Shown here: piece after piece, positions 2,195-28,677 of the stretch
Layout of the letters: the number at the start of each line of letters is the position of its first letter
Numbering within the stretch: the first letter of the stretch is position 1
DNA from: a virus
Lineage: Duplodnaviria > Caudoviricetes
DNA: 64,000 nucleotides
Reading direction: 5' to 3' (one strand)
Virus record (IMG/VR): IMGVR_UViG_3300021255_001258
Coordinates: 1-64,000 of that record
Made by a program: the position numbers and the translations under genes
Notes under the pieces: generated by a model
The model's database searches: none
Seen by the model: the letters and a program-made list of their open reading frames with translations, nothing else
Told to the model about the DNA's origin: nothing

Positions 2195-2202
2195 ATAATA
2201 TG

Positions 2203-4128: not shown

Positions 4129-5362
4129 GTGAAAAATATAAAATTATAAACATTGTACATAGCGGTAGGAAGGGTCCAAGATGGGAAACCGTTACTGATC
4201 CAAAATATGATGACATGCGTGGCTGCATTTTGAAAATTGGTGAGATTAGGCAATTTAAACCAATCAATGCTACCATATATGGTCACCCATATTACGATAC
4301 ATGGAGGACATCTGAAGTGATTGGATTCAGCAGAGACCATGATGGTGCATATATATTGGAAACGGTAAATACAATATATATATTAGAGGAAGTGACGCAA
4401 TGAGTATTGCAGGAAAGTGCTGCTTCGAGGACACGGTTGCCATTTTCGGAGCAGATAATATTTTGGAAAAATATAATGTATACATTGGAGACAATATCCT
4501 GCCGCTTCGGATGGAGTCAGAAAAAGATTTGATTCCGTATTATCCATATCTTGAGTCAATCATAGTATCTAATAAAGAAACTGGCGGAATAATTCGTCTG
4601 CACACTCGGTCATTTATAGACGAGGAAGAGGAAGAGCGGCTGACTTGGCGATTGAATGAACTGAAGAAATATTGGCGAAGATGTAAACGCAGAAAAGAAC
4701 CATTCTCGACTGAAGAAGCTTTAAAAAAAATCTGCTTTTTCGATCCGCAAGATTATGAGAAGAAATTAGTTACCAGAGTCGCAGAGTTTGGTGAAGCCGC
4801 AATAATTGAAGGGATTCATGATCCAATGCATGAACGTATGCGGAATGAATTATATGAATTGATGGTTAAATATGGCTGGTCGGAACCACAAGCGTATCGT
4901 TGGGTATACGGATGGGAAAGGAGTTTTGCCCGTGAGAAATCGTAATCTATGGATCGTCATTTCCATGATTTTGGCAATAATTGTTGGATTGTTGCTTTCA
5001 TGGGGTATAACAATGGCATTTATTTACTTGACATCATGGCTCCTTAAAATCAGATTTTCATTGAGAATTGCTACGGCAATATGGTTAGTGCTTGTGCTGC
5101 TCAGTGGTGGTGTTACGGTTACGGCAAGGAGGTGAAACCGTTGGAATGGTGGATTAAGAGTGGAGATGTTGTTCAGTTCAAATCTGGAGACTTTAAAGGA
5201 TGTTACGGCACAATTGTTGCCGTCAATGATGTGAATGGTTTGGTATATACAATTGAGATACCAATGCCGTACACATCTCCAATAACGATTAGTAACGTAC
5301 AAAGTAATGATTTTTATTGTATAGGAGAAAAAATAGATGATAGCGATCAAGCCAGATGGTAG
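4125..5362 (+). other. run of small hypothetical genes (4125-4403, 4400-4945, a membrane protein ending at 5135, an ORF ending at 5362)
   Basis: Overlapping stop/start junctions (ATGA) and RBSs; no family recognised. Confidence 0.55.
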
Positions 5363-5465
5363 AGATATTACTGAGATTTCAGACGAGGAATGGAATGAAT
5401 TATATGCTTCGATTCCTTGGACCAAATGTATCGTTGTTTATATAGGAGTTTAAAAAAGATATTTA

Positions 5466-5640
5466 TCGGCGGTAGGCAAGCACAGAGTTACGAAAGTAAT
5501 GTAAAAGCCGTTTAAGACAATAATAGCTGCGTCCGTGGAACGTCTGTGGTGTTAACACAGCGCCAGTTTCTGGTGATAAATTAATAAAGGCTACGCAATC
5601 CATAGCAGATGCGTGTGATTGAAACTGCACACCCGCCGAA
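5466..5640 (+). ncRNA. tRNA-like structured RNA candidate
   Basis: Intergenic. 7-bp terminal stem TCGGCGG/CCGCCGA followed by TA; 5-bp stem GTGTG/CACAC directly abutting the 3' strand; internal hairpins TTAC-GAAA-GTAA, CTGTG/CACAG, CGCCAG/CTGGTG. Confidence 0.5.
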
Positions 5641-6169
5641 CTAAAATTAATAAAGAATGGAGTTATACACAATGCCGGATTGCGAAACGTACCAACTCAC
5701 ACTGCAACACTACATTATCTGCGACGAAGAATACATCAAGTTAGAAGAACCTTTAGTTGTCAAGATGAATGTCAGAAATGATATACCGACTCCGGTATGC
5801 TTAAATAGGATGATCGATATAATGAGAGATGAAATGTTGAAAAGAAATGAAAGGATTGTTTTATGAGACCAATTGATGCAGACGAATTACTGGAACACGC
5901 TTGGCGAGAAAAACTTGATTCCAGAGAATTAATAGCTAAGATGATTGAAGATGCTCCGACTGCTTTTAAAGGTGACTTAACCTGGGTACATCCTAAATAT
6001 ATCCCATTAACATCTGCCCAGAATGATTTGTTTCTCTCATATCAAACTGGATGGGCATTGCAAGTTGTATATTGGAGAACTGGTTATGGATGGAGAAGAA
6101 TTGATACTAACGATTCTGTTGACCCAGAATTGGTATCACAGATAAATTTGCCGGATTAAGGATAAAGCT

Positions 6170-6502
6170 ATGAGTGTATTAATCAAAGGTATGAAGATGC
6201 CAGATAATTGTGACGTATGTCTTTTCTCAGGTTGGTCAAACCTAGATCAAACATCATGCTGTAAACTCAAAGAGTATGAGCCTGGATTTCCAGAATATAG
6301 CATAGCTTATAGAACACAAAGAAGTAATATCTGTCCACTTGTTGATATCCCGGAACATCACGGCAGACTATTTGACCAAGATGATGTCAAGGCGGTTTTG
6401 TATGACATGCCTGATACGAAAGATAAGTGGGATGCGATAGCGTTGCTGGAGTGGGCGATAGATAAGCGCTGGTGTATCGAGGCAGAAGGAGTGGAAGAAT
6501 GA
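6170..6502 (+). CDS. Cys-rich small phage protein, paralog of 7003-7284
   Basis: MSVLIKGMKMPDNC..CPLVDIPEHHGRL versus MSVIVKGMRMPENC..CPLVELPEHHGRL. Confidence 0.7.
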   Translation: MSVLIKGMKMPDNCDVCLFSGWSNLDQTSCCKLKEYEPGFPEYSIAYRTQRSNICPLVDIPEHHGRLFDQDDVKAVLYDMPDTKDKWDAIALLEWAIDKRWCIEAEGVEE

Positions 6503-7006
6503 AATTCGTGGAATTTAATAAAAGGGAATACCACAACGGTTATTGCTCAGTCAGAATTCTGGTATCAATCAGCGATATAACGAGGGTAGTCGAATGTGTT
6601 GATAACTATAGCTATACGAATATCGTAACAAAAGATGGGAAAATATTTACACTGAATGAAAAATACGCAGATGTGATTAAGAAAATCAGGGAAGCAGAAG
6701 GAGCGGAAGAATGAGAAAAACGATAGCAATTATATGCTTAACTGCTATGTTATTCATGTTGGCAGGATGCGAAGAAGGGAAGTCAGGAGCAACACCCGGA
6801 TATTCAAGCGAATATAACATACCAGATATTTCGATTCTCGCTGAAGACACATGCACATATGATTATTTTTATGTGTTAGACAATAATACGGGAGTTGTAT
6901 ACCTTCAATTCAGTGGCTATAGAAGAGCAGGAATAACTGTGGCATTAAATGCGGATGGAACACCGATTACTATCGACCAGATAAAGCGGAAGAGGTGGAA
7001 GAATGA
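6479..7006 (+). repeat. 24-bp direct repeats at three consecutive gene junctions
   Basis: GAGGCAGAAGGAGTGGAAGAATGA (6479), GAAGCAGAAGGAGCGGAAGAATGA (6691), AAAGCGGAAGAGGTGGAAGAATGA (6983). Confidence 0.75.
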
Positions 7007-7037
7007 GCGTGATTGTGAAAGGAATGCGGATGCCTGA
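6711..7037 (+). CDS. lipoprotein (DUF6440-like)
   Basis: Signal peptide with lipobox LAGC; DNNTGVVYL..AGITVALNADGTP. Confidence 0.65.
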   Translation: MRKTIAIICLTAMLFMLAGCEEGKSGATPGYSSEYNIPDISILAEDTCTYDYFYVLDNNTGVVYLQFSGYRRAGITVALNADGTPITIDQIKRKRWKNERDCERNADA

Positions 7038-7284
7038 GAACTGTATCGAGTGCATGAACTCGGATTTAAGAACGGCAATTAAATGCACGGAATGGACAGA
7101 AATAAGCGCATGGCGTAGAGAAAACGAGAGAGCGCTGAGTTGTCCACTTGTAGAACTACCAGAGCATCACGGCAGATTGATTGATGCCGATGCTCTAGTT
7201 GCAGAATCACTTGCGGATGGTGCTTATGGATATGTGGGCACAAAAGAGATTTATGATGCGCCTACGATTGTTGAAGCAGAATGA
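7003..7284 (+). CDS. Cys-rich small phage protein, paralog of 6170-6502
   Basis: Shared N-terminus with 6170-6502; its RLIDADAL..APT segment also resembles ORF 5863-6159. Confidence 0.7.
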   Translation: MSVIVKGMRMPENCIECMNSDLRTAIKCTEWTEISAWRRENERALSCPLVELPEHHGRLIDADALVAESLADGAYGYVGTKEIYDAPTIVEAE

Positions 7285-7608
7285 AAGGATACCGACATGA
7301 AAATTCGAGAGCTGCTTGAGCGAGAAAAATACATTGATGATACAATTAATAAGTTTGCGAAAAGAACTCGTAATACGGAATCGCATATCGGATGGGACAA
7401 CCTAAGTATTAATATCTCAGTAAATGATGCCAGACAGATTGCAACTTGTTTAGATTGGCTTCAGGCAATATTTAAGCAGAATATTGATAGTATTAGTGTA
7501 TATGATGTAAGTATAAAAAATCTTCCAGATTATTATTAATGAAATGGCTATTATATCAAACAATCCAACAAGAATTAATGTAAAAATTATTTAAGAGGAG
7601 ATTTTAAT

Positions 7609-8031
7609 ATGTGTAGCATTATTGAAATTAAAGGTGATATTAGAACGACACCGCAGGGATATTCGATTGCAGCAGCGTTTAGCGATGATTTGAATTGTAA
7701 TGTCGGAATTCCGAAGATTATGGATGAAATGTTTAACATTGTTGATCGCGTTGAAGCAATTAAGAGATACAAAAAGACAAATGCCATCGCAAAGCTAGAT
7801 AATCTTTATCTGCTTTTTGTTAAAGAATCTAGTTATGATACGCCAATTTACGATAGAATGGTAACTGCCCTCAAAGAATTGCGAAAAAGATGCGAGAAAG
7901 ATTGTATCAAAAAACTTGCTATGCCAAAAATCTGCACCGGATCCGGCGGCTTCGATTGGGATATGGTTAACGATGCGATTATGGACGCATTCACGCTTAT
8001 GGATATTGATATTGTAATTTATTATAGGTGA
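7609..8031 (+). CDS. TARG1/OARD1-like macrodomain (ADP-ribose eraser or binder)
   Basis: IKGDI at the N-terminus, LFVKE, LAMPKICTGSGGFDWDMV; 140 aa. Confidence 0.7.
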   Translation: MCSIIEIKGDIRTTPQGYSIAAAFSDDLNCNVGIPKIMDEMFNIVDRVEAIKRYKKTNAIAKLDNLYLLFVKESSYDTPIYDRMVTALKELRKRCEKDCIKKLAMPKICTGSGGFDWDMVNDAIMDAFTLMDIDIVIYYR

Positions 8032-8035
8032 CCGT

Positions 8036-9265
8036 ATGGAAGATAGAAAACCAGTATATTTGGTAAATGTTGAAGGTGATGGGAATCATAACAAATATTA
8101 CCGTATGATTGCTAATCCAGACGGAGCATCTTTCACGGCAGAATATGGTCGAGTGGGATCGTCACAGCAGACAAGAACCTATCCAATTCAGCAGTGGGAT
8201 AAGAAATACAACGAAAAAATCCGCAAAGGCTATACAGATCAGACTTATCTGATGGAAGACCTTATTTCAGTTATTAAACCTAAAAAGGCGAAATCGGAAT
8301 ATAAAGAAATTGAAGACGAAGCCATTGCTGAAATTGTTAAACGACTGATGAGTATGGCCCGCCAGAAGGTGCAGCAGAATTATAAAGTCGAATCTAATCA
8401 GGTTACTCAGGCTATGGTAGACGAAGCTCAGAAGATTATAGATGAACTTACGACTAAGACGAAACTGGAAGATTTTAACGAAAGCTTGATGATTCTGTTT
8501 GCTGTAATTCCTCGGCGTATGAAGAATGTCAAGGATTATCTGGCTAAGACTAAAGAAGATTTTTTTAGGATTATTAAAGATGAACAGGACCTTCTGGATG
8601 TTATGCGTGGTCAGGTGATTACTCATGCGGTAGAAGAGGAAGAGTCAGAAGATGACCAACCCACAAAAGATGAAACCATTCTCGAAGCTATGGGTCTTAC
8701 GATTGAACCTGTATCTACTGATGAGATAGAACTTATTAAATCTAAACTTGGAGATTGTAAAGACAAATTCTATCAGGCTTGGCGAGTAACTAATAAAAAG
8801 ACTCAGAAACGGTTTGATAACTTTGCAGCAAAAGAAAATATTAAAGATACGAGGCTTTTCTGGCATGGGAGTAGAAATGAGAATTGGTGGTCAATTATTA
8901 ATAATGGGTTAATGATAAGACCTACGAATGCCGTATATACAGGCTCCATGTTTGGCGATGCTATCTATGCAAGTCCAACGGCTAAAAAATCTCTTGGATA
9001 CACTTCATTAAACGGTTCTTATTGGGCAAGAGGAAACGCATCTTCGGCATTTATGGCATTGATGCAATTTCATTATGGAAACCCATATGATGTATATTCA
9101 TTTGATAGCAAATATTATGGGTACAATTATCAGAGGTTACAGAACGATTGCCCTGGTGCTAATTGTCTTCATGCGCATGCTGGTTCTATGTTAAGAAATG
9201 ATGAGGTTGTTTTTTATAACGTGGATCAGGTGACTATTAAATATTTGGTAGAATTGAGAGGCTAA
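8036..9265 (+). CDS. PARP-family ADP-ribosyltransferase (WGR, helical and catalytic domains)
   Basis: NHNKYY..YGRVG..KIRKGY (WGR); FWHGS, GSMFGDAIYAS..KSLGY, LRNDEVVFY (H-Y-E triad). Confidence 0.9.
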   Translation: MEDRKPVYLVNVEGDGNHNKYYRMIANPDGASFTAEYGRVGSSQQTRTYPIQQWDKKYNEKIRKGYTDQTYLMEDLISVIKPKKAKSEYKEIEDEAIAEIVKRLMSMARQKVQQNYKVESNQVTQAMVDEAQKIIDELTTKTKLEDFNESLMILFAVIPRRMKNVKDYLAKTKEDFFRIIKDEQDLLDVMRGQVITHAVEEEESEDDQPTKDETILEAMGLTIEPVSTDEIELIKSKLGDCKDKFYQAWRVTNKKTQKRFDNFAAKENIKDTRLFWHGSRNENWWSIINNGLMIRPTNAVYTGSMFGDAIYASPTAKKSLGYTSLNGSYWARGNASSAFMALMQFHYGNPYDVYSFDSKYYGYNYQRLQNDCPGANCLHAHAGSMLRNDEVVFYNVDQVTIKYLVELRG

Positions 9266-9484
9266 AATGGAATGAAGGTGGGTTATTAGATGATTAAATT
9301 AGATCTTGAAATGCCCAAAAATCGTTTAGAATGTCCGTTTCTGGAAGAAGATCCAGATGATAATACGCTTTGGTGCTATTTTAAACCTCAAATTGATGAA
9401 CAATGTATCGGATTATTCAATGGTAAATGCCCAATAATTTGTGATGATGATGCTGATGAAAGGGTTATTTTATAAAAATTAAAT

Positions 9485-10048
9485 ATGGTAATAGATTTAG
9501 AAAATAGTAACAATAAATATGGAATTATTTATACGGATCCGCCATGGCAACAGTCAAAAGGTGGCAAAAAATCCGCAAGACCAAATTCTAGTGGTGGTGA
9601 ATTGTCTTATCCAACAATGAGTTTGGATGATATATGTTCATTACATAAAGATGTTTTTGATAGATTAGCGGAGCAAAAACACAATGTGTTTATGTGGACA
9701 ATTGACAAATATCTTATAGACACAGAAAAATTTATGAAAGAGTTGGGATATACCAGACATGCTAGAATTATATGGGATAAAATAACTGGGCAAGCCACAG
9801 CATTTACTGTTAGATTTACACATGAATATTTACTTTGGTTTTATAAAAAAGGAAATATCTTAATGCCAGCAGATAGTACTCGTGGAAAATATTCAGATGT
9901 AATAAGAGAACAAGTAAAAAAGCATTCTCAAAAACCGCAATGTGCATATGAAATGCTAGAAGATATGTTCCCAGATACTAAGAAACTAGAATTATTTGCG
10001 AGAAACAAGCGACCTGGCTGGGACTGCTGGGGCAATGAAGTAGAATAA
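9485..10048 (+). CDS. MT-A70-family adenine methyltransferase
   Basis: IIYTDPPW, YPTM, HSQKP, LELFAR..GWDCWGNE. Confidence 0.9.
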   Translation: MVIDLENSNNKYGIIYTDPPWQQSKGGKKSARPNSSGGELSYPTMSLDDICSLHKDVFDRLAEQKHNVFMWTIDKYLIDTEKFMKELGYTRHARIIWDKITGQATAFTVRFTHEYLLWFYKKGNILMPADSTRGKYSDVIREQVKKHSQKPQCAYEMLEDMFPDTKKLELFARNKRPGWDCWGNEVE

Positions 10049-10243
10049 AACAGTACTTTTATTGGGGGTAAAAAATGGAAGAATTGAGAAAGATGTGTGA
10101 AATTACTACTTCTACGCCTTCGGATACAAATTGGGTTCTTAAACTCCTTGAAAATCAAGATGTTTTGGTACGCAGATGGGATGCTGGTTCTGGCCGAGAG
10201 CAATTTATAATTTATGAAAAAATCCAATAAAATGAGTTTTTTG

Positions 10244-10356
10244 TCTGCGGTGATGGAATAAGTAGACATGCGTAAGTGTTGCAGAGAGCCAGTCACGGAG
10301 TAATTAACCGTTTTACCGCGCCCGAACATGCAAGGTGTAAATCCTTGCCCGCAGAT
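10244..10356 (+). ncRNA. tRNA-like RNA with an aberrant anticodon domain
   Basis: Acceptor TCTGCGG/CCGCAGA, then TG, Leu-type D arm ATG-GAATAAGTAGA-CAT, T arm GCAAGG-TGTAAAT-CCTTGC; a branched centre of about 60 nt replaces the canonical anticodon arm. Confidence 0.6.
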
Positions 10357-10528
10357 TTGAACAAAATGAGTTTTTATGCCTGAGATGGTATGCGATTGAG
10401 GAAATGAACTCATGATTAATAAACTGATCATTTAAGCGGTGGGTTAGGATCAGCTCCGAAAGGTAAGCATGTCCAAGGATGAAGCAACTACCGTATAAAA
10501 AGATTATTTGATAATTTGGAGGAATATT

Positions 10529-11446
10529 GTGAAACAAAAACATTTTTTAGATATAGAAAATTTGCGTGAAAATGATACCGAATTAAGGCGTGGCAATGGT
10601 TATGGATTCAAAAAGGGCGACATTATTAGTATTACAGAAAAAATCGATGGCAGTAATTCTTCTATAAGATATGATCCAGAAACAAATAGTCTGATTGCCT
10701 TTTCAAGAAAACAGGAGCTGTCGTTTAATAATACCCTTCAGGGCTTTTGGAATTATGTACAAACTCTTGATATAAAACCTTTTAAAGACCATCCCTCATG
10801 GTTTGTATTTGGTGAACAAAATGGAACTAATAAAATTAAGTATAGACCAGAATATGTTAAGAAATGGATTGTATATGATATTTATGATTCCGATACGGAA
10901 CAATGGCAACCGCAGAATGTCGTAAAGAAGTTCTGTGAAGATTATGGTTTCCCATATATTCATGAACTGTATTTCGGACCATTTATTTCGTGGGATCATG
11001 TTCGAAGTTTTTTGCATAGTCCTGGATATGGTGATAGACAAGAGGGTGTTGTAATAAAAAATCAGACAAAGCTTAACAATCCAGATTCAAGACTTCCGTT
11101 TTATTTAAAGATTGTCAATGAAGATTTTAAAGAATCCATGAAGACGAAAGAAAAAGTTATTGATCCCGAAAAAGAAGAAGCAAAAGCAGAGGCGCAAAAA
11201 ATCGTTGAATCTATAGTAACAAAAAATAGGATAGAAAAAGAATTATTTAAGATGCGTGACGAGGGTATTATTCCGGAAAAAATTCAGCCGAGTGACATGA
11301 AACTTGTTGCCCAGAATCTTCCCAAAAGAATCTTTGATGATTGTATGAAAGAAGAGAAGGAATTAGTACTAGCCGCAGGAGAATATTTTGGAAAAATGTG
11401 CGGAGCATATACTATGAAACTAGCTAGAGAAGTGATATTGGGATAA
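10529..11446 (+). CDS. ATP-dependent RNA ligase (Rnl2-like)
   Basis: TEKIDGSN motif I, FGE, YDI, EGVVIK, LKIV; GTG start after GGAGG. Confidence 0.8.
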   Translation: MKQKHFLDIENLRENDTELRRGNGYGFKKGDIISITEKIDGSNSSIRYDPETNSLIAFSRKQELSFNNTLQGFWNYVQTLDIKPFKDHPSWFVFGEQNGTNKIKYRPEYVKKWIVYDIYDSDTEQWQPQNVVKKFCEDYGFPYIHELYFGPFISWDHVRSFLHSPGYGDRQEGVVIKNQTKLNNPDSRLPFYLKIVNEDFKESMKTKEKVIDPEKEEAKAEAQKIVESIVTKNRIEKELFKMRDEGIIPEKIQPSDMKLVAQNLPKRIFDDCMKEEKELVLAAGEYFGKMCGAYTMKLAREVILG

Positions 11447-12455
11447 GTTGGTATAACGGGGTATAACAACATGAATAAAGTAGAAATCAGATTAAATGTC
11501 GCCCAGGTAGATGATATATGGAGACAGGTAAATTCAAATAATAATTCTGTAGAAAAATTTATTGATGCTTTTGATTATCTAAAACGAGACAGACCGGATA
11601 CAGAAATAATAATCGAAACAACTTTTGGCTCTGGAACCTTAAAAATTTCTGACATAATGATTTATGATGATCCAGCCAGAAGAATTGTATTCGATGCAGA
11701 ATGAAAGAAGTGTTTGATTGGAATGCGTGTAATAGGAGAGATTAGTAATGGCTGAATTTATTGGCGGTGAAGTTAAGTACGTTAAAGTTGGCGAACCTGT
11801 TGGAATTGCTCCGCTTCCAAAACCAATTGCGACAGTGAAATTTGATGTAATATCTCCTGGGATATATAAGGTTGAGGTACGACAAGATGGATCGTGGATT
11901 GCAGTTAGAGATTATTTATGTAAAAAGGAAAGAATAAATGAAATTTGAAGTTCCAGAGAATTGTGGATCGTGTTTAAGTATAGAACAATTCGGAAACAAA
12001 TATATTTGTGGAATGCCAGTATCCAAAGAAAAAGAAATGCTTGATATCAGTGCTTTTGAAGTAGATATAAATTCTCGTCCGGATTGGTGTCCAAAAAATA
12101 AAGTTATTAATATTATAAATAATTTGTCGGAAGAAAACAAAGTTTTGGTTGATAGAATGTGTGACGGATTTTCGGCAATGTTTGAGTTGATGAATAATAA
12201 GAAGGATGGGAATTAAATTTTTGATGAGGATTGGGATTGTATAGATTGAAAGATATGATTTATGAGCGTTGAAGGATTTTTACTAAAAAGAAGAAGATTT
12301 AGAACACCGCATAACATGTATCAACTTACTGGAGATGATAAGCATTTTGATTTGGATGTGGCGATTAGCTTATTGGAAACTGTTGGGAAAGTAGAAGAAG
12401 ATGGTAAAGAGATATGGACAATAGTTCCACCGGGATATAAATGGAGTGTTGTGAA

Positions 12456-12827
12456 ATGACAAGAGTAATTATTGCGGGAAGTCGAGATTTCTATTCGCCA
12501 GGAATTTTTAATAATGTGATGACTGAATTTTTATCAGATATACCAGAGGATGAGTTGGAAATAATTTCTGGTGGTTGTCGTGGAGCAGATGCAATTGGTG
12601 AGCAATATGCTAAAGACTGGAATATTAAATGCACTGTTTTCCCGGCAGAATGGGATAAGTACGGTAAAGCCGCTGGTCCAATTCGCAACGAACAAATGGC
12701 TAAATATGCTGCTGAAGCCGATAGAGGAATGTTAATTGCTTTCCCGATTGGCGAGAGTAAGGGAACGAGAAATATGATTAAACTGGCACAACAGTATGGA
12801 TTGGAAATATATGTAATCGAGGAATAA
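12456..12827 (+). CDS. SLOG-superfamily protein (DUF2493/YspA-like)
   Basis: VIIAGSRDF, IISGGCRGAD, FPAEWDKYGKAAGPIRN..M, SKGTRNMI. Confidence 0.85.
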   Translation: MTRVIIAGSRDFYSPGIFNNVMTEFLSDIPEDELEIISGGCRGADAIGEQYAKDWNIKCTVFPAEWDKYGKAAGPIRNEQMAKYAAEADRGMLIAFPIGESKGTRNMIKLAQQYGLEIYVIEE

Positions 12828-15800
12828 TATGCGAATAATAGATGTAAATACAGATTATTATGATTACCTTCAGAACATATACCGAGATAATTCTTTGGTG
12901 TTTGATCGGAGAGATTCGTTTGTGTTAACTAAGAAATTTCTTTGCGAGTGTTTAAGAATTAATAACGGTTGTCTATCTAAGAATTATAGTTATAAGAATT
13001 ATCTGTTGCTTCAAATCTGTAATTCGTTTTGGTTATTCAGTGTAGATATAATCAAGTTCGACAATTATCGCCCAACTGATTATCAGATTGAGTTATTAAG
13101 ATCATGGAAAAACTACGATAAGGCTAGGAAGCTGATCAGTTTAGACGTTATATACTTTGGATTTATTCCTGGATATTATGAACTTAAAGATTCGGAGAAA
13201 ATGCTTGATTCACAAATTCAGGCAATCGATATTAATAACTATAGAATTTGGAAGAGTATAAATAGATTTTTTATTTATCCTGGCAATGATATAAACAGAA
13301 AAATAGAGAAACATATTCCACTATTGAAAGCATGTGGGATTGCTGAATGGATTGATCCGCTTGATGTGTATCTAGCGTTTGAGGAATATTTTTCTTTAGA
13401 AAAAAGTTCTTCCGAGAGGCGAGAACCAATTGGTAATACTGATATTGATAAAATTGAAAGCCATGGATTTGATGTTAAAACATCTTTTAGAGGGAAGAAT
13501 AAGAAGGAGTAATAACTATGACGGGATTTGAAGAACTTAAGAATGCTTATGAAGTGATTAAAAATGAGTACGGTTATCTTTGCAAAAGTATATCTTTGCC
13601 ATACGAGGATAATGAATATACTAAATTTGTATTTGAATACCAGGGATTTCCGATAAAGCATTCATTTTCATATTTGTTATATGAAAGTCCATACGGAGAG
13701 AATGACGATGTAGAATTCTTTGATAGTGAGAATGAGGTAATTTATACTGTATCACAATTGTTCGCCATTACGGATTTCGTTAAAACTATTCAGGATAATA
13801 GAGATAATAAAGATGTAATAAATGAATTTATTAATTATCTTAGAAATGAGTACTTAACAATGAATGAGGAATAATATGTTATCACAGGAAAATATTAATA
13901 AGCTGCACATGAATGGCATTTACCGCTGTGATCCGGTACTGGAATGGCTACCATCATATAAACGAGATACCCCTTATTGGTGTAAGAATTGGACGTTCAG
14001 GATTAGAAAATCTAATAAATATTACATGTATGATACTTATTGGTCAACTGGTGATGAGTACCCAATAGAATTAACTGATGAGAATTTCGATAAATTTGAA
14101 TACCTGTTTGATCTAAATGATATCCAATACATTAATAGCTACGAGAATTGGCTTGAATATCCAGAAGAAGACAGATGGAGAATCCCACTAGACTCCGGTG
14201 GTACTGCGTATGCTAAATATGTCATCAGGCGAGGTGCTAAGAAGATCAAAGAACGAGTAATCGAAAGAATACAGAGAGATATTGATTATTTAAGAAATGA
14301 TCTGACAAATAAAGAACGAATATTAAATGGGATAATTGACGGTAGTATTGATCCTGACCGATATTGATGAACATGATTGTATAGATTGGACAAACAAGTT
14401 TATTAGTGAGGTGAAAATATTAAATGACGAACTGTCCTAATTGTGGCGCTCCGATTGAGCCGTATAAATGTAAGTGCGAATACTGCGGGACCTGGTACTT
14501 TGATTTTACCGCATTTGATATGAGCGAAGATAAACCGTATTATGTTAAGTTTAACACTCCATATGGAGTAATTACGACATTGGCTAGACCAGAATTACAA
14601 ACTATCGACGTTTATGACGATTCCGTAGATTGTACTGATATCAGGGGAAACACTGTTTTGCGTTTTGTTAGAAGTAGAAATTGTGATTTAGGGGTGATAT
14701 TTCACTCTATAATTGACCCGGAAAATGGCAGCTTATATACATTGGGGGCAAGACAAAATGTTAAATGATTCATATTGGAAAGAATATAATGATGGAGAAA
14801 TGGCTTTCTTATATTCATCGGATAATAAAAAAATAGCTTATATTCAAAAACAAGAAAGCGGTTGGGACTGCACAATCTTTCATAAGTATATTGCAGAAGG
14901 ATTTTATTTGATGAATATAGATTCGATTGAAGAAGCAGAATGGCAGATGACACTTTATATCTATGATCGGTGCAATGAGATTGCAAATGAGCTTCATAAA
15001 CTCCGGGACCATCTTCCGAGTATTCATGAGTTGGCAGAAAAATCGGGAGTAACAAAAACGGAGGAATAATAATGAATATTCAGTACAACAACATTGGAAC
15101 AGAATTTGAAAGATTTGAAATATATCTCAGAGAAGAAGATTATCATAAGCTATTCACCGAGGAACCTTTTGGAAAATTGCTGATATTTTTCGAAGATCTT
15201 GGCAAGATGATTTCCGGCAATCCAGAGAAATTAAAAGAATGGACTTCAGGCTGCACAAGATATGATGGAGTATTGGAAGTGTCCAAAGAAATATGTAGGA
15301 TTCTCGAAGAGCAATGAAACAAGTCTTTTATCGGAAAAGAGGTAAAATGGGCAAAAAATATTATATAATTGCCAGAAACTATGAAGACAAGGTTTGGCAA
15401 TACGAAAAGCAAGTAAATACACTGTTTTTCGCACGTATCTTTTTTACATATGCCTGTCTTCGGTGGAATATTATTGAGATGCATAAAATGTAACCAGATA
15501 AAAATTAGATTTGATTGGAGAAAAGCCGATGAACATACCAGACAAACCGACAATTCCGCCAATGCCAAAAATAAAAACAGATGGATACATTGCTCAACCG
15601 TCTAATACTCCCAAACGAATATACAGATCTTTTTGTGTCGTCGGGAATGGCCGACCGGCAAATACATGCGAAGATCTAAATAGAAAGATAAGCTGTTTAC
15701 TGGAATATGGTTGGGCAATAGAGCGGATAGATTGTCATGATAATATTTACGGCATCTGGAAGGGTGACGAAAGAAAATATTATCCGACAAAGGATTATGT

Positions 15801-17990
15801 GATTATAGCAAGTGCAGAGGAAAATTAACCTATTTAAAGCACGACTTGAGAAGTGAACAAGTAGGCAAGTAATAGCACTTCGTGATTGGTGTGAAGCTGA
15901 AAGATGTCTTTGATGAGGAAAAATATGTATATAGAGATGCCACCAGATGCAATGCAACCACATGATACTTGGATTATTGCCTTTTGCCCAGATACAGATT
16001 CGTTCTTTGTCACCAATCAGAGAGCGTTCTACTGGGAATCCGAAGAAGAATTTGAATCCGAAGAAGATGGAATATATTTCTTTGAGCATCAGATTCAATA
16101 CTTCATTGATGTAGAAGAAAAATTAATGAGCGACATGTTTATTAATGATTGGAATACTGATTGTGTTTTTCTGGAGAACACAAATAGACGATATCTTAAA
16201 AACTAAGTTTTATCGGAGAGGTTACAGATTAATGAATACACTATATAATATAACTTCAACTAATATTGGAATTTTTTATAAAGATCAAAAGTGGAAGGAC
16301 GATCTATTTGAAGAATTGCTACGTGAAGCGCATGAATGCAAAACTCTGTATAGTTATAGTGTAACCGAAAATAGAATCCGGTTTTGTGATACATATATTA
16401 ATATCAATATTATTTTTGTGGGAGCAAACGAACATTCACGAGGACATAGATTTGATAGGATTTATTATCAAAATGACATTGATCAAAACACTTTCTCAAT
16501 GGTGATACGTCCATTGTTTATGCCGAAAATATTTCCGTTATATTTTTGACAGGTGAGATTTGTGACGCAGTATGTAAAACAATAGACAATTTTTAAGTAA
16601 TAAAATAAGTATTTAATAGGAGAATGTCATGTTATTTACAGCACACAAAGATGCAACCATTGATTATGACGGCATCGAGATAAAAGAATTTAATAAAGAA
16701 TTAGATTCTCCATTTGTTCCATTCCCTGGCGGTGGACTTGACAGATATTGTTATGTGATTTATCAAGGACTATTTGGTAAATATAAGATTAGACAATGTG
16801 AAGTTGTTGAGGTTTGGTTTACTAATATCTGGGGATGGCGTATGGATAATGGTTGGACGTTTATTAGCGATGAACTTGATAAAACCGTGTTCAGGTATGA
16901 CAATGAAGAACTTCGCAAAGCGATTGAGATTTGCGAGAAGAAAAACAGGATGAGGAAAGTTAAGGTTAAATACCTTTAAATGAGAAACAGCCAATAGATT
17001 AAGTAATAAAATACAAGGTATTAAACATGAAGATAATTAATCGTGATGAATTAGCAAAAATGCCGAATGGCACAGTGTTCTCATACTTTGATGGCTACAA
17101 TATCGATGGATTTGAAATCATAACGGGCAGCGATGGTGATGGATTTAATGGTACCATCAATTTGGAGCCAAGTTTTAACTGGGACAGTGATCATTCGGAA
17201 AGAATTACAAATTGGTCAACCGTAGATACCGCCGATTATGATTTTGATAAAAATTCCCGATTTGTTGTTTATAGCAAAAACGAAATACGCGAAATAATTC
17301 AGTGGCTAAAATGGGCTATTGACGAAAATGGACATCCCGATATGGAAAAGTATTTTTATAAAGACCAGGTAATATCAGAGGAAGAAGCTTCAAAATATAC
17401 TAACGGACGCGGCTTATGGTGGGGATGAACCAAGATTGGAGAAATTAATGAGTAAGATAGGCTATTTAATTAGGTTTCGACCGTATACATTAGAAGAAAA
17501 TTGCAAAGATGAAATATACCATAATCATTTTAGTCCTATTGATGAGTTTTATTTAGATGAAACAGAATTCAATGCTAGAGTTACTGAACTAGAAAATGGT
17601 TATTTCGAAGACTTAGATGGTTCTGTATTTGATGGCGTAGACATTGATGATTTATATTGGTGCGAATTACACCGAATAACGAACAGATAAAAAATAAATT
17701 TGATTGGAGAAATAAATGAGTGTTTGCTATACATTTTATCGTCCATGGGATATGAAAAAAATAGATAGTGGTAACTATGCCGGGATGCCATTTTTTAACA
17801 ATGACTGTCCAATTCAATTATACCCAGACGAAGAAAAGAGCATAGGTCAATGTTTTACAACAATTATTAATAGGTATGACGCGGTTAAGTTACAGAATAT
17901 GATGAATTGTAATGAAACATTATTTACAGATCTTATGGATGAGAATAATACAGATAGTTTAATTATAAGAATAACATAGGAGGATATTAT

Positions 17991-18242
17991 ATGGATTTCG
18001 ATTTGAGAGCAGAAGCAATTGTAACAACATATATTGAGGAACATTTGGATAAAACAGACGGTGTACCAGATTTTGAAGTGTTTATTGTATGGAAGTGCAA
18101 AACCTTACAGAACTGGAAATATCTATTGAGTAGTACGTTGTTTGATGGTATGTACTATGAGCTTACATATAATGGTGACAAAAGCGAATGGTATTTGGAT
18201 GCCTATAAGAAGTTTGAGAACCGAGTAATTCCTGAGATTTGA
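17991..18242 (+). CDS. DUF6275-family protein
   Basis: VFIVWKCKTLQNWKYLLSS..DGMYYELTYNGDK.E.YLDAYKK. Confidence 0.75.
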   Translation: MDFDLRAEAIVTTYIEEHLDKTDGVPDFEVFIVWKCKTLQNWKYLLSSTLFDGMYYELTYNGDKSEWYLDAYKKFENRVIPEI

Positions 18243-18299
18243 TTGGAGAAAAAGCTTATATGTACAAGTTGGACAAACAAGTTTGATTGGAGGAAGATT

Positions 18300-19136
18300 A
18301 TGCCGGTACATGATGATCTCGGTACAAGAATGAAGACGAACTATGAGCAGATTCAAAAAACAAAACTTATGAGACGTTGCCCAGTTGTTGTAAGAATTGA
18401 TGGCAAATCGTTTCATTCATTTACAAAAGGATTTAACAAGCCATTTGATGATATTCTTATCAAATCTATGCAAGAAACAATGGAATATCTCTGTGAGAAT
18501 ATCCAGGGATGTGTTCTTGGATATCATCAATCAGACGAAATTAGTCTTTTACTCATTGATTATCAGGCACTTAATTCACAGGCGTTTTTCGACTATGAAG
18601 TTCAGAAGATTTGTAGTATCACTGCATCAATGGCAACTATGGCTTTTAATAAATTTTTAACAAATAATTATCAACAGTGGGTTAAAGAAACTATTTCAGA
18701 AGATAAATTAATGGATTCTTCAAACTTACTTGATTATAAAGAGGAATTAATACTTAGTACGGTCTATTATAAAGCAATAGATAAAGGCGCAATGTTTGAT
18801 GCACGTTGTTTCAATATCCCCAAAGAAGAATGTACAAACTACTTCTATTGGCGACAACTTGATGCAACACGAAATTCAATCCAAATGGTTGGTCAGGCGA
18901 ATTTTAGTCATAAAGAACTTCAGAATAAATCCTGTAATAATATCCAGGATATGTTACATGAGCAGAAGGGTATTAACTGGAACGACTTCCCAACATATCA
19001 AAAAAGAGGATCTTGTTGCATTAAAATAAAACAGATGATTAATGACGTTGAAAGATCAAAATGGATTGTTGATAATGATATTCCTATTTTTGTTAACGAA
19101 GGAAGAGATTATATTGAGAAGTTGATTGGAGAGTAA
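18300..19136 (+). CDS. tRNA(His) guanylyltransferase Thg1-like protein
   Basis: VVRIDGKSFHSFT, YHQSDEISL, FDARCF, YFYWRQLDA..N, GINWND. Confidence 0.92.
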   Translation: MPVHDDLGTRMKTNYEQIQKTKLMRRCPVVVRIDGKSFHSFTKGFNKPFDDILIKSMQETMEYLCENIQGCVLGYHQSDEISLLLIDYQALNSQAFFDYEVQKICSITASMATMAFNKFLTNNYQQWVKETISEDKLMDSSNLLDYKEELILSTVYYKAIDKGAMFDARCFNIPKEECTNYFYWRQLDATRNSIQMVGQANFSHKELQNKSCNNIQDMLHEQKGINWNDFPTYQKRGSCCIKIKQMINDVERSKWIVDNDIPIFVNEGRDYIEKLIGE

Positions 19137-19138
19137 TT

Positions 19139-19762
19139 ATGATTCAAGGACTTTATGAATTTGCAAAGAAATGGTCTGCCAAAGGATCTGTGTGGATGAT
19201 AAGTGACACACACTTTGATGACGCAGACCGTGAAGCAATGGGTTACACAATCAGTAGCCAGGAACAAGCTGACATTCTTAAAAAGTATGTCCACAAGAAT
19301 GACACTCTGGTTCATCTTGGTGATGTTGGTGAATTGTCGTATCTTGAGAAACTGCCCGGTTATAAGGTTTTGATTCTCGGAAATCATGACTGGACGGCAA
19401 CGAAATATAAAGGTGTATTTGACGAGGTGTATGAAGGGCCATTAGTAATAGGTAAGAAATTAATTCTTTCGCATGAGCCGGTAAATGTGTTGTGGGCAGC
19501 AAACATCCATGGTCATGTCCACTTTCAGCCGTATGAGAATGACTGTGTTATCGGAAAAATGAACCTTGCAGCAAATGTATGTAATTACACTCCTGTAAGT
19601 CTTGGTAAATTAATCAAGGACGGGCTGTTGTCAAATATTGTCGATATCCATCGGCAGACCGTAGATAAGGCGATTGACAATCCTATCAAGAAAAACACCG
19701 TTATCAATCCAAATGACTGTGGAAGTATCGGTGGTTGGAGCATTGAGGAGGACAAAGAATGA
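19139..19762 (+). CDS. calcineurin-like metallophosphoesterase
   Basis: SDTHF, HLGDV, LGNHD, LSHEP, IHGHVH. Confidence 0.88.
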   Translation: MIQGLYEFAKKWSAKGSVWMISDTHFDDADREAMGYTISSQEQADILKKYVHKNDTLVHLGDVGELSYLEKLPGYKVLILGNHDWTATKYKGVFDEVYEGPLVIGKKLILSHEPVNVLWAANIHGHVHFQPYENDCVIGKMNLAANVCNYTPVSLGKLIKDGLLSNIVDIHRQTVDKAIDNPIKKNTVINPNDCGSIGGWSIEEDKE

Positions 19763-22005
19763 CATACGAGAATGATTATTTCGATATACCGGAAGACGTT
19801 AAATTAATGGACGACAATCAGCTTCATAAAGAAGCAAAAGAAGCATATGCCGACATGGAGCAGCGTCCGGTAATACACAAAAAGGAATCGTTGGATTCCG
19901 TATATTTTAAATTCGGTAGTGACATGACATACCTGGAGAAACTCAGAGAGATTGTTAATAATAATGACGATAGAGGACTTCTGAATTGGCTTGGTTTATT
20001 TGCAGACTGGTACGATCCGGGTGGTTGGTATGACGACAACTTATTATTAAGATACTTAAATGATGAGTATCCAGACGACAACGAAACATAATTTTGATGG
20101 TATATACAAGAGGCAAGCGTATGAAAAAAGAAGATTTGTTTGAGAAATGTTGTATTAATCAGTATCATGCCATGGATGGACTTGGCAGGGTTATCCTTTA
20201 TAAACGAAAGGATTTATATGACTGGGCAAAAGAAGCGGCAAGTAGAGGTGAGAAATACTTCTACTGCCGTCCAGTAAATAAGAATGACCGTTACGGTGAG
20301 CTTGAATTGTGTGAGCCGGAATACGGATGGTTTATTAAAGATAAGAACGGATTACCGGAAGAAATCTATAATAAATTAAACATGGAGGACTAAAATGAGT
20401 CTTGAGGCTGCATATGATGGATATGGGATTAATACAAATCCTCAGTTTGTATTTGACAAGTGCGAGAAACGAATTGCCAAGAAAAAGCAAGACATTGAAG
20501 ATCTAGAGAATGAGCTTATGTTGTTAGAAGATCAGGCCTTGCAGACTTATAAAAATTTTGTATATTATTTTAAATTAAATCCAGAGACGATTAGACACGC
20601 CAGAGAATGGTTGTGGATGGTTAAAAACAACAAAGACTCTGATGGCAATAAGCTTGATAAACGCAAGAAGTACGAAGAAAAATCTTATTTCGAGTTTATT
20701 AGAGACCATATGAAAGAAATACTTGGTATTTCCGACATAGAGATAACGTCCATTATTGATGTGAATTGGGGTCAGGCAAATGATATTGAATTTATCCATC
20801 TTGGTCATACCTGGCGATTGGAAGTTCCAGCAATCAAACATGTATCTATTAAAGACTATCGAAATTATGGTAGCATCGTCTTTAAACTAAGATTATGTCA
20901 TTGCGAAGAATGCTTAATCGAAACAATTGGTTCGACGTTTGAAGAAAACGAATTAGCGGATATTATGCAGAAAGGTATCAAGAAGTATTTATCGTAAGTG
21001 GGATTGATAATATGAATATATGTGCAAGTGAAATAAGTCTTAAAGGTGACGAAAGAAATATGAGTCAGGGTTCTATTAATGCGCGACAAGTTTTTATAGA
21101 ACATGAAAAACAAATAATTAAGTATGCAAATAATATAATTGAACTGTTAAGAAAAGCATATAGGAATCAAATTGTAGACGACACTAAAGACGAAGCAAGT
21201 AAGATAATCGCTTCTTGTCAAACATTTTTGAGTATATTGGAGAATACATAATGACATTAGGTAATATATTAAATCATTACGTTAAGGATGGCGCCGATGT
21301 ATATATCCCAATCACATACAGAACTATCATTACATCGGATGGCACGGATGTGTGCGCCGGATTTTGCCGGTATGAGAACGGTGAATTGATTTCCGAGGAC
21401 GGTGACAATTACTCCTTGGAAGATGAAATAATTAAATATGAGATGAAATTAGACAACAATATTAACGGTACGATGCAGATGCATTTAACCGTATGGTATG
21501 AAAGCGAGTGGTTAACAGATGATTGTTACGGGTAATCCCATTTGGGATGCAGATAAATCCACTAAGGATATACGCCCATACATAAGGTGCGAGTCCTGTG
21601 GCAAAGAGATTTATATGCCGGACGAAACGTATGCCGGTGATCCATATTATTACATTGACGATGAGTGTATATGCGAGGATTGTTTTCCAACATATGCGAA
21701 AGAACATTGGTATAAGGAGAATTACTATGCGGAATCCTGATAGGCTTGATGGCTTTTATGATGAGTTAAAAAAAATACATAAAGAACATTTTCCGGACTG
21801 GCGCTTCGGTCAGTTCATGTACAACTTTATGGTTTGGCTAAATAACACGCAGAACAACGATGGCTTTTATTATGAAGAAGATAAGATGTTGGAGTTGTTT
21901 AAGAAGTACGTTGGTGAAATCAAATGAGAGACGCAATTATAAGACTGATACTGATTTGGATTATTGGATCAATTGTGTTAACAATTGCAGATAAAGAGGA
22001 TTGAT

Positions 22006-22623
22006 ATGAAAAATTTACTTAAAGGTATTTGGGCAGGAATCATGATTGCCATAGGCTGTGCGGTATTCCTGATGTGCAATGACAAAATTGTAGGAAGTTT
22101 CCTATTTTCGATAGGGTTGATGTCGGTGCTTGTTTTCGGCTTCAATCTGTATACAGGGAAGGTGTGCGACTGGCAGAATTATAAGAAGCCGCTTTCCTTG
22201 TTAACCACTTGGTTCTACAACCTACTAGGCGCGGTTGGTCTTGGTATTCTGCTCAGCGGTCACTCGGCAATGGCTAAATCCGCCAGACTGCTGGTAGATA
22301 CCAAACTAGCCAAACCATGGGGAGTAGTTTACATAGATGCTCTGCTGTGCGGTGTTTTTATTGGAATAGCCGTTCATGGTTACAGAAAATTTGCCGGAAG
22401 CAGTGGAGGGCTTCTGGCGGTTGTTTTGGGCGTGATGGGATTCATTCTGAGCGGATCCGAACATGTAATTGCAGATATGGCTTACATTGCCATTGCTCAA
22501 TCCGGCGAACTGAGTAAAAATCTACTATTCGTGCTTATGGTGACGCTTGGAAACACCGTTGGCGGAGCGGCATTTGGCTTGTCGTTAGCAGCAATTGATA
22601 AATTAGAAAGGGTAAAAAAATGA
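22006..22623 (+). CDS. formate/nitrite transporter (FNT) family channel
   Basis: AGIMIAIG, LFSIGL..FNLYTGK, NLLG, FILSGSEHVIADM, TLGNTVGG; about 6 TM helices. Confidence 0.85.
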   Translation: MKNLLKGIWAGIMIAIGCAVFLMCNDKIVGSFLFSIGLMSVLVFGFNLYTGKVCDWQNYKKPLSLLTTWFYNLLGAVGLGILLSGHSAMAKSARLLVDTKLAKPWGVVYIDALLCGVFIGIAVHGYRKFAGSSGGLLAVVLGVMGFILSGSEHVIADMAYIAIAQSGELSKNLLFVLMVTLGNTVGGAAFGLSLAAIDKLERVKK

Positions 22624-23042
22624 GTGATTATAAACAGATTGTGAAACCAGAAGACAAGATTGTTGTAAATGTAGGAAAAATGTTTATGGGAGACATAGTT
22701 GACGAACTCTGTAAGGGTTTATCTGCTGATATTAGCTATGGTGTCTGGTCAATCATGGTAGATAAATATGCAGGAAATTATGCGGACACCGTCAAAACGA
22801 TGGCTAGATGTGCGCCGGATGATACCTGGGACGAGGAGTTTGGTAAAAAACTTGCGGAGCAGCGTTATTATCTGAAGAAGCATGAAAAGATTGCGAAGTA
22901 TGCACATAAGATGCGCGAAAGATTCCTGGCTCTGGCAGACCGTATGGGCGAAGTGGAGGTCGAGCATGGAGTTAAAGTGAATCGAATCAAGGCAGATATT
23001 GATAATTATTTCCATGGGAAGGGAGAGAAACATGAAAATTAA
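22620..23042 (+). CDS. hypothetical phage protein
   Basis: ARCAPDDTWDEEFGKKLA..R motif, common in phage proteins. Confidence 0.55.
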   Translation: MSDYKQIVKPEDKIVVNVGKMFMGDIVDELCKGLSADISYGVWSIMVDKYAGNYADTVKTMARCAPDDTWDEEFGKKLAEQRYYLKKHEKIAKYAHKMRERFLALADRMGEVEVEHGVKVNRIKADIDNYFHGKGEKHEN

Positions 23043-23262
23043 TTTCATTGACGATCTCGACCAGTTCTTTAAGGTGGTGGACTCATGTACCGGACAGGTA
23101 CATGTGGTCTCCCCGGAAGGAGACGATATTGTATTAAGCAGCAAGCTTAGTCGGTTTGTGCTTAGTACAATTCCGCACGATGAACTGAGAGATTTAAATT
23201 TGGAACTGCGTTGTGAGAACGCAGAGGATACTATGAGGTTTATAAAATTTTTAGTGGGGTGA
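23032..23262 (+). CDS. small HPr-fold-like protein
   Basis: FFKVVDSCTGQVHVVSPEGDDIVLSSKLS pattern; 76 aa. Confidence 0.45.
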   Translation: MKINFIDDLDQFFKVVDSCTGQVHVVSPEGDDIVLSSKLSRFVLSTIPHDELRDLNLELRCENAEDTMRFIKFLVG

Positions 23263-23269
23263 GATATAT

Positions 23270-25813: not shown

Positions 25814-25814
25814 T

Positions 25815-28666: not shown

Positions 28667-28677
28667 GGTGATTATAC

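Follow-up and report, generated by a model that had tools for sequence, protein, structure and literature searches.

An accessory region punctuated by a dyad

The 64,000 nucleotides considered here, hereafter the window, are positions 1 to 64,000 of a single viral contig of 127,448 bp, IMG/VR record IMGVR_UViG_3300021255_001258, which we designate G000 and for which CheckV estimates a completeness of 65%. Near-identical or partial copies of this contig occur in gut metagenomes of sheep, goat, and cattle. Its genes lie on the + strand from approximately 110 kb through the contig end to approximately 30 kb and on the minus strand in the remainder, and a strong Shine-Dalgarno sequence (SD) is found upstream of most of them. 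The interval 5449-20098, within the + strand block, contains approximately 45 small genes in which the recognizable families are accessory functions: a macro domain, WGR-PARP, an MT-A70 methylase, an RNA ligase, a Thg1-like enzyme, and a phosphoesterase. Our subject is a dyad that stands at the gene junctions of this interval, ATRAAA-N6-TTTNAT, in which two inverted arms enclose a center of exactly 6 bp and which a first-pass annotation of the window had taken for the boundary of integron-like gene cassettes. These dyads are real linkers between genes and are conserved among related phages, where their centers are collinear, their neighbors have been replaced, and blocks of homology begin or end at them.

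A megablast search with 5-20 kb found no match among deposited phages, and an Rfam search of positions 1-40000 also gave none. The relatives used for comparison are five viral contigs that were found by protein-guided searches and then taken whole. Their core proteins are 30-60% identical to those of the G000 phage, whereas the accessory genes they share with it are 75-98% identical and sit in different neighborhoods, a disparity which implies that single genes have been exchanged recently between lineages.

Strict matches to the dyad number 18 on the two strands of the window, at 12 places, against 0.61 expected from dinucleotide shuffles, and none of 100 shuffles reaches 18, which bears out the enrichment over background that the first-pass annotation had estimated. 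Singly, the arm hexamers are common between 5 and 20.5 kb (50 and 65 copies). As strict pairs in 5000-20500 they occur nine times at a spacing of 6 and 0-2 times at each other spacing from 0 to 25, with 0.21 expected; with one mismatch allowed, there are 17 pairs at spacing 6 versus 1-5 at spacings 3-10, and in five genomes pooled there are 110 arm pairs at spacing 6 versus 2-16 at the other spacings.

The nine strict copies that had been listed at the outset are all present where they had been placed. The list of near copies needs some revision, as these differ in quality: those at 7539, 10227, 16196, and 20081 have one mismatch each and those at 10360 and 12246 two, the one at 5449 has three mismatches, is unconvincing, and is best dropped, and a near copy with one mismatch at 15897 had been overlooked. 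Strict copies also lie beyond the interval, at 36539, 38002, and 38084, where they read on the minus strand between late genes, and at 93962, 124006, and 126373 in the rest of the contig; positions 1-5800 and 20100-36500 hold no strict dyad. On G000 the sites form two ordered arrays, the first at 124-127 kb and the second in the window at 5.8-20 kb.

A location at gene boundaries, which had been claimed for the copies first noticed, applies to all 15 strict copies in the genome, each of which falls at a gene end or in an intergenic gap, and the dyads are oriented with transcription throughout. Between 5.6 and 20.5 kb, 19 gene junctions leave a gap of at least 19 nt; a minimum of 12 of these hold a dyad with no more than one mismatch, and most of the others show a weaker resemblance. 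Where genes abut closely or overlap, there is no room for one. The element is directional: read with transcription, it invariably has A or G at left-arm position 3, whereas any base can stand at the mirror position on the right, and two thirds of the sites have an A immediately before the left arm.

The dyad is found in two registers relative to the adjoining genes. In the commoner one the stop codon lies in the left arm and the SD directly 3' of the right arm. The linker ends the upstream gene because the stop codon usually occupies left-arm positions 2-4 (A-TAA-AA or A-TGA-AA, in many sites), and a GGAG-type SD follows the right arm at once, with the start codon mostly 10-17 nt past the dyad; the first-pass description of the arms as supplying the upstream stop and leading into the ribosome-binding site or ATG is therefore accurate. 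In the second register (ATGAAAGGRTTRTTTKATG) the SD falls within the left arm and center and the right arm provides the ATG. Here the reading frame of the upstream gene extends into the dyad, and this produces the shared C-termini NERIVL and DERVIL that had been noticed earlier and that the translations confirm.

The arms offer six A/T pairs and would form no stable stem. Arm positions 3 and 4' do not covary, ATAAAA with TTTGAT giving an A-G mismatch, which excludes an RNA hairpin, and an attC-like hairpin was rejected along with it. Sigma-70 promoters and terminators show neither an excess nor any association with the dyads. All genes between 2.2 and 30 kb are on the + strand, and promoter-like sites are no commoner than in shuffles; the one good site is the TTGACA-17-TAATAT at 2203 that had been pointed out before.

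Centers that stay in place while genes are replaced

The peak at spacing 6 is shared by the relatives G001, G002, G003, and L002, which have 7-21 forward copies each versus 0-2 in the reversed control; it is weak in G004 and missing from the more distant G005. The centers recur as well. The 82 junction dyads of five genomes yield 35 inter-genome pairs whose centers are identical, while column shuffles give 1.36 on average and 7 at most, and the shared centers are collinear in every pair of genomes (5/5, 5/5, 5/5, 4/4, 3/3, and 7/7, with permutation p from 0.0005 to 0.17). The centers thus form collinear, position-specific families. Their order in the window is GGATTG, GGGTTA, CAGTAC, TGAGTT, AGATTA, CAAGTC, ATTAGA, ACTAAG, TAAGTA, AATAAA, and this series runs also through G001, G002, and G003, with CGATTC added.

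The array at 124-127 kb has a series of its own, CAACGA, CGGTTA, AACAGC, CTCGCC, which relatives continue with GATAGG, GACACG, and ATCAAG. The full series CAACGA-CGGTTA-GATAGG-AACAGC-CTCGCC-GACACG-ATCAAG recurs in nine independent rumen contigs, in which the distances between sites range from 211 to 1988 nt. These contigs came from a metagenome search with one 18-mer that returned 63 hits. The majority are fortuitous matches from unrelated habitats; this phage group is represented by only 11 of the 63, those with an SD behind the match, and two pairs among the 11 have identical flanks, which leaves the nine analyzed.

What the dyads do not keep is their neighbors. The first-pass annotation had suggested aligning related phages, and in four relatives and the nine metagenome contigs the same dyads, with the same centers, stand in the same order between flanking genes that are mostly unrelated (in approximately 90% of same-center pairs). 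Its expectation that the dyads bound units that are gained, lost, or replaced among related phages holds in this sense: relatives keep the dyads and swap what lies beside them. Among pairs of sites with the same center, 3 of 35 have downstream open reading frames with 84-97% identity and 1 of 29 has upstream ones that similar, and the rest score as random pairs do. This two-peaked similarity, with nothing between the close matches and the random-like ones, indicates gene replacement and not divergence. Alignments anchored on the dyad show the same pattern at the level of nucleotides, with identity of about 0.3 up to position -2, about 1 across the 18-mer, 0.4-0.65 over the SD, and 0.3 again by about +24. 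One block of 19 nt is 100% identical in four genomes between flanks that cannot be aligned.

Some comparisons display the replacement directly. G000 15314-16213 and G003 25614-26163 have three linkers in common, in order, and nothing else that blastn or tblastx can detect. At AGATTA, G001 is a hybrid: the gene before the linker is the one found in G003 (85%), the RNA ligase gene behind it is the one found in G000 (95%), and in G002 the same linker precedes yet another gene. In the pairs G000 and L054, L068 and L102, and G003 and L110, 150-400 nt of upstream sequence are common right up to the linker, directly behind which the two members differ. A gene that we call Y is shared by G003 and G001 together with only the right arm and SD in front of it, and G001 carries one extra gene between two TTTGA right arms. 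Duplicated linkers with the same center flank two cassettes, the element at 10245-10357 in G000 (TGAGTT) and a two-gene block in G001 (GGGTTA, 91764 and 92584); such flanking duplicates are what insertion through a linker would leave.

Individual sites

The members of the window array are all on the + strand. The strict dyad at 5847-5864 (GGATTG) encodes part of the upstream C-terminus NERIVL*, and its right arm, TTTTATG, includes the next start codon; G001 and G003 contain an identical 18-mer between flanks that are unrelated. A near copy with one mismatch at 7539-7556 comes directly after the stop of gene 7297-7539. The strict dyad at 9456-9473 (GGGTTA) encodes the DERVIL* C-terminus of gene 9290-9475; its center is found also in G001, G002, and G003, and the L002 homolog of this gene is without the dyad-encoded ending. 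At 10045-10062 (CAGTAC, strict) the left arm contains the stop TAA of the MT-A70 methylase gene and is followed, beyond the right arm, by an SD-like GGGGG run and an ATG. This dyad region is 82% identical in nucleotides to that at G003 17361, while the genes behind are 40% identical in amino acids.

The near copies at 10227-10244 (one mismatch) and 10359-10377 (two mismatches), both with the center TGAGTT, are the left and right members of a direct linker duplication and share the 13-mer AAAATGAGTTTTT. Between them lies a 115-nt element (10245-10357) with a closing stem of 6 bp, CTGCGG...CCGCAG, and a T-arm-like GCAAGG-TGTAAAT-CCTTGC, followed by CCGCAG-A. It resembles the acceptor stem and T arm of a tRNA and sits just 5' of the RNA ligase gene, and G003 12395-12640 retains its ends but has another interior between them. 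As a tRNA, the element was rejected: ARAGORN and Rfam report nothing, and its fold is no better than that of shuffles. The next strict dyad, AGATTA at 10495-10512, is 5' of the RNA ligase gene and is the site of the three-way mosaic with G001 and G003 described above.

Further along, the strict dyad at 11701-11718 (GAAGTG) has the stop TGA in its left arm, and a contig from another run joins at 11698, 3 nt to its left. The near copy at 12246, with two mismatches, had been listed from the start. Left-arm TGA stops recur at 15314-15331 (CAAGTC, strict), a center found also at G002 38472 and G003 25614 between unrelated flanks. The strict dyad at 15498-15515 (ATTAGA), followed by TGGAG and ATG, belongs to a 22-nt patch that is 95% identical to G003 25834-25855, with both neighbors unrelated. 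The near copies at 15897-15914 (GATGTC) and 16196-16213 (ACTAAG) have one mismatch each, and the second lies in a 24-nt patch that is 92% identical to G003 26140-26163. Just 5' of the first is a 24-nt string, CTTCGTGATTGGTGTGAARCTGAA, found in the window at 15868-15896, where it is apparently non-coding, and in G002 at approximately 39231-39258, in both cases just before a dyad; the matching position in G003 reads ...HDWCAMHG inside a gene, so the string may be a remnant of a replaced gene end. The strict dyad at 16600-16617 (TAAGTA) has an identical 18-mer at G002 39733, and the gene downstream of it has a 93%-identical homolog in G003 without a dyad. At 17687-17704 (AATAAA, strict) the stop TAA is in the left arm and TGGAG and ATG follow, and a near copy with one mismatch at 20081-20098 is the final site of the array.

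The three sites in the late block of the window are strict and on the minus strand. At 36539-36556 the right arm contains the stop of the minus-strand gene 36540-36677, the dyad at 38002-38019 is 26 nt 5' of the SD and ATG of a late gene of the tail-fiber region, and the one at 38084-38101 comes directly after the stop of a late gene of 1453 aa when TAG is read as Q. In G002, at 34535-34572, two dyads lie 2 nt apart, ATGAAAGGATTATTTAAT-AA-ATGAAACAAGAATTTAAT, and the second starts at the start codon of the next gene (MKQEFN...), so some ATGAAA-N6-TTTNAT matches may be N-terminal coding sequence.

How genes may be exchanged at the linkers

Since the succession of linkers is the same from phage to phage and the intervening genes are replaced by unrelated ones, the linkers most likely mark points at which whole genes are exchanged. 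As to the means, we lean, tentatively, toward homology-guided exchange: the dyads would be position-specific junction linkers that are functional in their own right and at which single-gene modules have been traded. Because the neighbors are mostly unrelated in the arrays, the linker would be the only sequence that two co-infecting relatives have in common at that place. A crossover inside the linker, between linkers with the same center, could then be guided by the 18-25 nt of identity and run by general phage or host recombination functions, as has been proposed for the PeSL cassettes considered below. Whole genes would be reassorted, with stop, SD, and order left intact. The common arms would be kept by a second function, for example as the target of a DNA-binding protein of the phage or as a signal for expression immediately ahead of the SD.

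Several points weigh against this account. Identity of 18-25 nt is below the length that RecA-type recombination uses efficiently, and no single-strand annealing protein, nor any recombinase besides the tyrosine recombinases, was recognized in the genome. Homology by itself leaves unexplained why the same arms recur at an exact spacing of 6 bp with a fixed center at each position. Some shared genes occupy different positions in different genomes, and close homologs of genes 10529, 16629, and 18300 are found in other genomes without a dyad. The gene calls on which junctions were defined are our own and heuristic. The breakpoints themselves also need to be read with care. In the early regions, homology blocks have 187 unique ends, and 17-20% of these coincide with dyads. 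This is approximately 10 times the random rate, but it is about the same as the share of gene junctions that have a dyad, so a junction with a dyad is no more favored as a breakpoint than one without. Approximately 80% of the mosaic breakpoints in the region are at junctions without a dyad, which is therefore not required for exchange. Contigs from four other ruminant-gut runs contain many joints at gene boundaries, few of them at dyads and none resolvable to the 6-bp center, and their backward joints fit rearranged strains as well as they fit circles.

If the linkers were instead the core sites of a phage tyrosine recombinase, their arms would bind two protomers and the 6-bp center would be the overlap that has to match between partners. 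The array would be a set of heterospecific sites, and exchange between co-infecting phages, or the insertion and excision of circular cassettes, would take place only between sites with the same center, in the manner of engineered recombinase-mediated cassette exchange with lox or FRT variants. We consider this rather unlikely, although its reach is the greatest: a regulator would explain the common arms only, and homology-guided exchange the fixed centers and swapped neighbors, while a recombinase explains all three and, alone among the readings, covers the common arms, the position-fixed centers, the kept order, and the swapped neighbors together. The geometry is in its favor, with inverted arms at an exact spacing of 6 bp, and the succession of A-run, center, and T-run is like the inner arms of the dif sites used by single recombinases (difH AGTTATGAAAA, difSL ...CCGAAAA / TTTTC...; PMC5357621). 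For homologous recombination, 18-20 nt of identity is little to work with, and the two cassettes between duplicated linkers with the same center are placed as Campbell-type insertion would leave them.

Candidate enzymes are at hand. The window encodes a tyrosine recombinase of 420 aa at 28678-29940 (+ strand), which retains R..HxxR..H..Y, adjoins an HNH endonuclease gene (27866-28666), has homologs of 413-414 aa in G002 and G003, and is the candidate we would propose for a protein acting at the dyads, and a Xer-like tyrosine recombinase of 337 aa at 35163-36176 (minus strand), also with intact catalytic residues, which is probably the integrase. A third lies inside the late-gene block at G000 74279-74854 (minus strand, in an open frame of 313 aa). 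A recombinase type of 413-422 aa beside an HNH gene is common to G000, G002, and G003, each of which has three tyrosine recombinase genes, in comparison with one each in the dyad-poor G004 and G005. That the number of recombinases tracks the dyads is suggestive as a sequence correlation, but it rests on five genomes of unequal completeness.

Other features fit a recombinase poorly. The arms are conserved over 6-7 bp, where known core sites have 10-13 bp, and identity is at background from position -2 outwards. The arms are asymmetric, with a purine at left position 3 and any base at its mirror. Neither array adjoins a recombinase gene, the nearest being 8.6 kb past the last site (20081), and, as noted, most breakpoints in the region are at junctions without a dyad. 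We are a little more doubtful of the wider proposal that the array comprises natural heterospecific recombinase sites which might let relatives swap any single accessory gene in register. Such a phage system of gene exchange would be distinct from integrons. The integron-like array that the first-pass annotation had envisaged is unsupported because the site stays with the position and not with the gene; there is also no attI-like single point of entry, no adjoining recombinase, and no means for the arms to form attC-like hairpins. IntI4 appears as a weak PDB match only, for the two window recombinases.

An alternative that we regard as unlikely is that the dyads do not take part in recombination and are purely regulatory, either operators of a dimeric DNA-binding protein, which the first-pass annotation had named as its own alternative, or a translational operator in the mRNA ahead of the SD. 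That they persist where genes have been swapped would then reflect only selection against recombinants that lose them. The many copies at gene ends, oriented with transcription, present in early and late blocks and overlapping stop or start codons, are reminiscent of stoperators (PMC9283540) and of the SAS/ESAS elements (PMC3203893). The position 0-2 nt before the SD is one from which a bound protein could block ribosome entry; conservation is higher in the dyad than in the SD spacer and at times exceeds that of the following gene, as at 10045 and G003 17361; and breakpoints are not enriched at dyads over other junctions. A repressor with the tyrosine recombinase fold that acts on a repeated element is known (PMC10516654), and G000 encodes an HU/IHF-family protein of 90 aa (98702-98974, minus strand; L021 14702-14974; Bac_DNA_binding, E 1.5e-23) with homologs in G001-G003 and none detected in G004 or G005. 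We did not adopt this or any other single protein as the binding candidate by presence and absence, as several proteins are present in G001-G003 and absent from G004 and G005, and the relatives are too few to pick one.

An operator may account for the arms. Alone, it does not explain the position-specific centers or the swapped neighbors: if a regulator recognized the arms, there would still be no cause for centers to be identical at the same position across genomes with 30-60% core identity, nor for both neighbors to be replaced around a retained 18-mer. No copy lies in an obvious immunity or early-promoter region, and none at the start of the early block at 110-114 kb. No helix-turn-helix or immunity repressor was recognized among the proteins scanned, and a catalytically dead recombinase serving as a repressor, as in the SPBRE/MrpR system, was rejected because both window recombinases keep their catalytic residues, unlike MrpR. 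A role in the mRNA is not favored by the lack of hairpin covariation and of an Rfam match. The operator consensuses CodY, cre, Rex, LexA, Fur, IHF, and parS are not known to fit the layout of an A-run, six nucleotides, and a T-run.

It is very improbable that the motif is a functionless by-product of compact AT-rich junctions built from a stop, A/T filler, an SD, and an ATG. In favor of this reading, the left arm does contain TAA or TGA, the right arm can give ATG, other junction types recur (e.g., GAGGTGATTAAATG), and some ATGAAA-N6-TTTNAT matches in relatives are N-terminal coding sequence for MKxxF. Against it, the spacing controls already contradict it through enrichment at one exact spacing only, and the dyad form is kept in two registers relative to the SD and start, with the whole 18-mer conserved between distant genomes. 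In order of probability, we thus place homology-guided exchange at the linkers first, site-specific exchange second, a regulatory role alone third, and a junction by-product last.

Other features of the contig

Beside the dyads, other repeated junctions occur. Several small genes in window 6170-7284 end in a near-identical ...GAAGCAGAAGGAG(T/C)GGAAGAATGA junction with a start/stop overlap, ATGA; 6170-6502 and 7003-7284 are paralogous by shared hits in relatives, and similar repeated copies are found at G001 90642-91560 and G003 15145-15760. At a minimum of five junctions in G000 123.8-126 kb, a long SD runs together with a stop and a start codon in a second recurrent form, (G)AGGTGAT(T/A)A(A/T)ATG. 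It also gives short blastn hits between genomes and is probably a constraint of compact junctions.

A few gene pairs stay together. The macro-domain and WGR-PARP genes (window 7609-9265) are 4 nt apart and are adjacent also in G001 and G003, a rare conserved junction. The RNA ligase (10529-11446), the Thg1-like 3'-5' nucleotidyltransferase (18300-19136), and the metallophosphoesterase (19139-19762) resemble an RNA or tRNA repair set, and the genes for the last two are adjacent in G003 too.

The minus-strand late genes (window 30000-64000 and G000 64-93 kb) are interrupted by no codon other than TAG, and with TAG read as sense their frames extend up to 5430 aa. The early + strand genes end in TAA or TGA, and TAG is rare there. 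ARAGORN detects no tRNA in the window. G000 102203-103480 (minus strand; L021 18203-19480) encodes 425 aa with an RRXRR domain (E 4e-67) followed by HNH, which we take to be the domain make-up of IscB-type RNA-guided nucleases. No Pfam family was assigned to an 850-aa protein whose only matches are PHROGs of unknown function, and a search of bacterial genomes for relatives of it found none. A phage-encoded RNA polymerase was rejected, as no DFDGD-type motif is present anywhere in the genome.

Implications and relation to known systems

How single genes can be swapped without damage to their neighbors is an old question about phages that goes back to the linker hypothesis of modular evolution. 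In the phages described here the linkers can be read as an ordered scaffold of 18-mers between which whole genes are replaced across phages with 30-60% core identity. Methylases, a PARP, an RNA ligase, a macro-domain protein, and a Thg1-like enzyme are among the products of the swapped genes, many of which have no known relatives. If a recombinase reads the sites, they would constitute a new natural kind of cassette exchange and possibly an orthogonal set of sites. If no recombinase is involved, they would be the clearest case outside the T4-type phages of recombination guided by regulatory linkers, and would show how anti-defense genes circulate among rumen phages.

Repeated elements of two other phage groups are similar in their distribution. 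Like the stoperators of cluster A mycobacteriophages (PMC9283540) and SPBRE of SPbeta, on which MrpR, a protein with the tyrosine recombinase fold, acts as a repressor (PMC10516654), the dyads occur in tens of copies in short intergenic gaps with one orientation. Those elements, however, are bound by an immunity repressor and occur also at early promoters, whereas here we found neither a repressor nor a copy in a switch region, and those systems have neither position-specific centers nor swapped neighbors. The SAS/ESAS elements of cluster K mycobacteriophages are repeats in one orientation 5' of the starts of different gene families, with inverted repeats before the SD, and a translational role is suspected for them (PMC3203893). 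ESAS has arms of 17 bp around a variable spacer of 4-13 bp and stays with its gene family; the dyad has arms of 6 bp at an exact spacing, and only 3 of the 35 same-center pairs share a downstream gene.

Integrons also contain co-oriented, mostly promoterless, unrelated genes separated by imperfect inverted repeats. In integrons, however, attC travels with its gene, acts as a single-stranded hairpin, and recombines at an attI beside intI, whereas the dyad stays with its position, would form no stable hairpin, and has no integrase gene next to its array. The dif modules (pdif, XerC/XerD) of Acinetobacter plasmids (PMC6449649, PMC13141974) come nearer, with inverted arms around a 6-bp center, accessory modules shuffled between replicons, and no dedicated recombinase gene adjacent to the sites. 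The pdif arms are 11 bp long, serve two host recombinases, and alternate in orientation, whereas the dyad arms are 6-7 bp and have one orientation, the dyad centers are position-specific, and the replicon is a phage; any Xer-type action at the dyads would be hypothetical.

Together with these plasmid modules, the closest type is the PeSL (promoter-early stem-loop) cassettes of T4-type phages (Arbiol et al. 2010, PMC2839356; Comeau et al. 2014, PMC4122927), for which mini-circles have been demonstrated. In both systems a short conserved intergenic motif marks hyperplastic regions rich in small genes without relatives, insertions, deletions, and replacements between relatives end at the motif, and the motif is the common sequence between unrelated neighbors. 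A PeSL consists of a sigma-70 promoter and a terminator hairpin and is alike everywhere, while the dyad has neither promoter nor terminator and carries a center of its own at each position. The linker hypothesis of Susskind and Botstein (1978) is said to have proposed that short conserved sequences between functional modules allow otherwise dissimilar phages to exchange them in register, and to have found little support in the lambdoid phages for which it was conceived. In the rumen phages considered here, the linkers can be read directly and have the defined form of a dyad.

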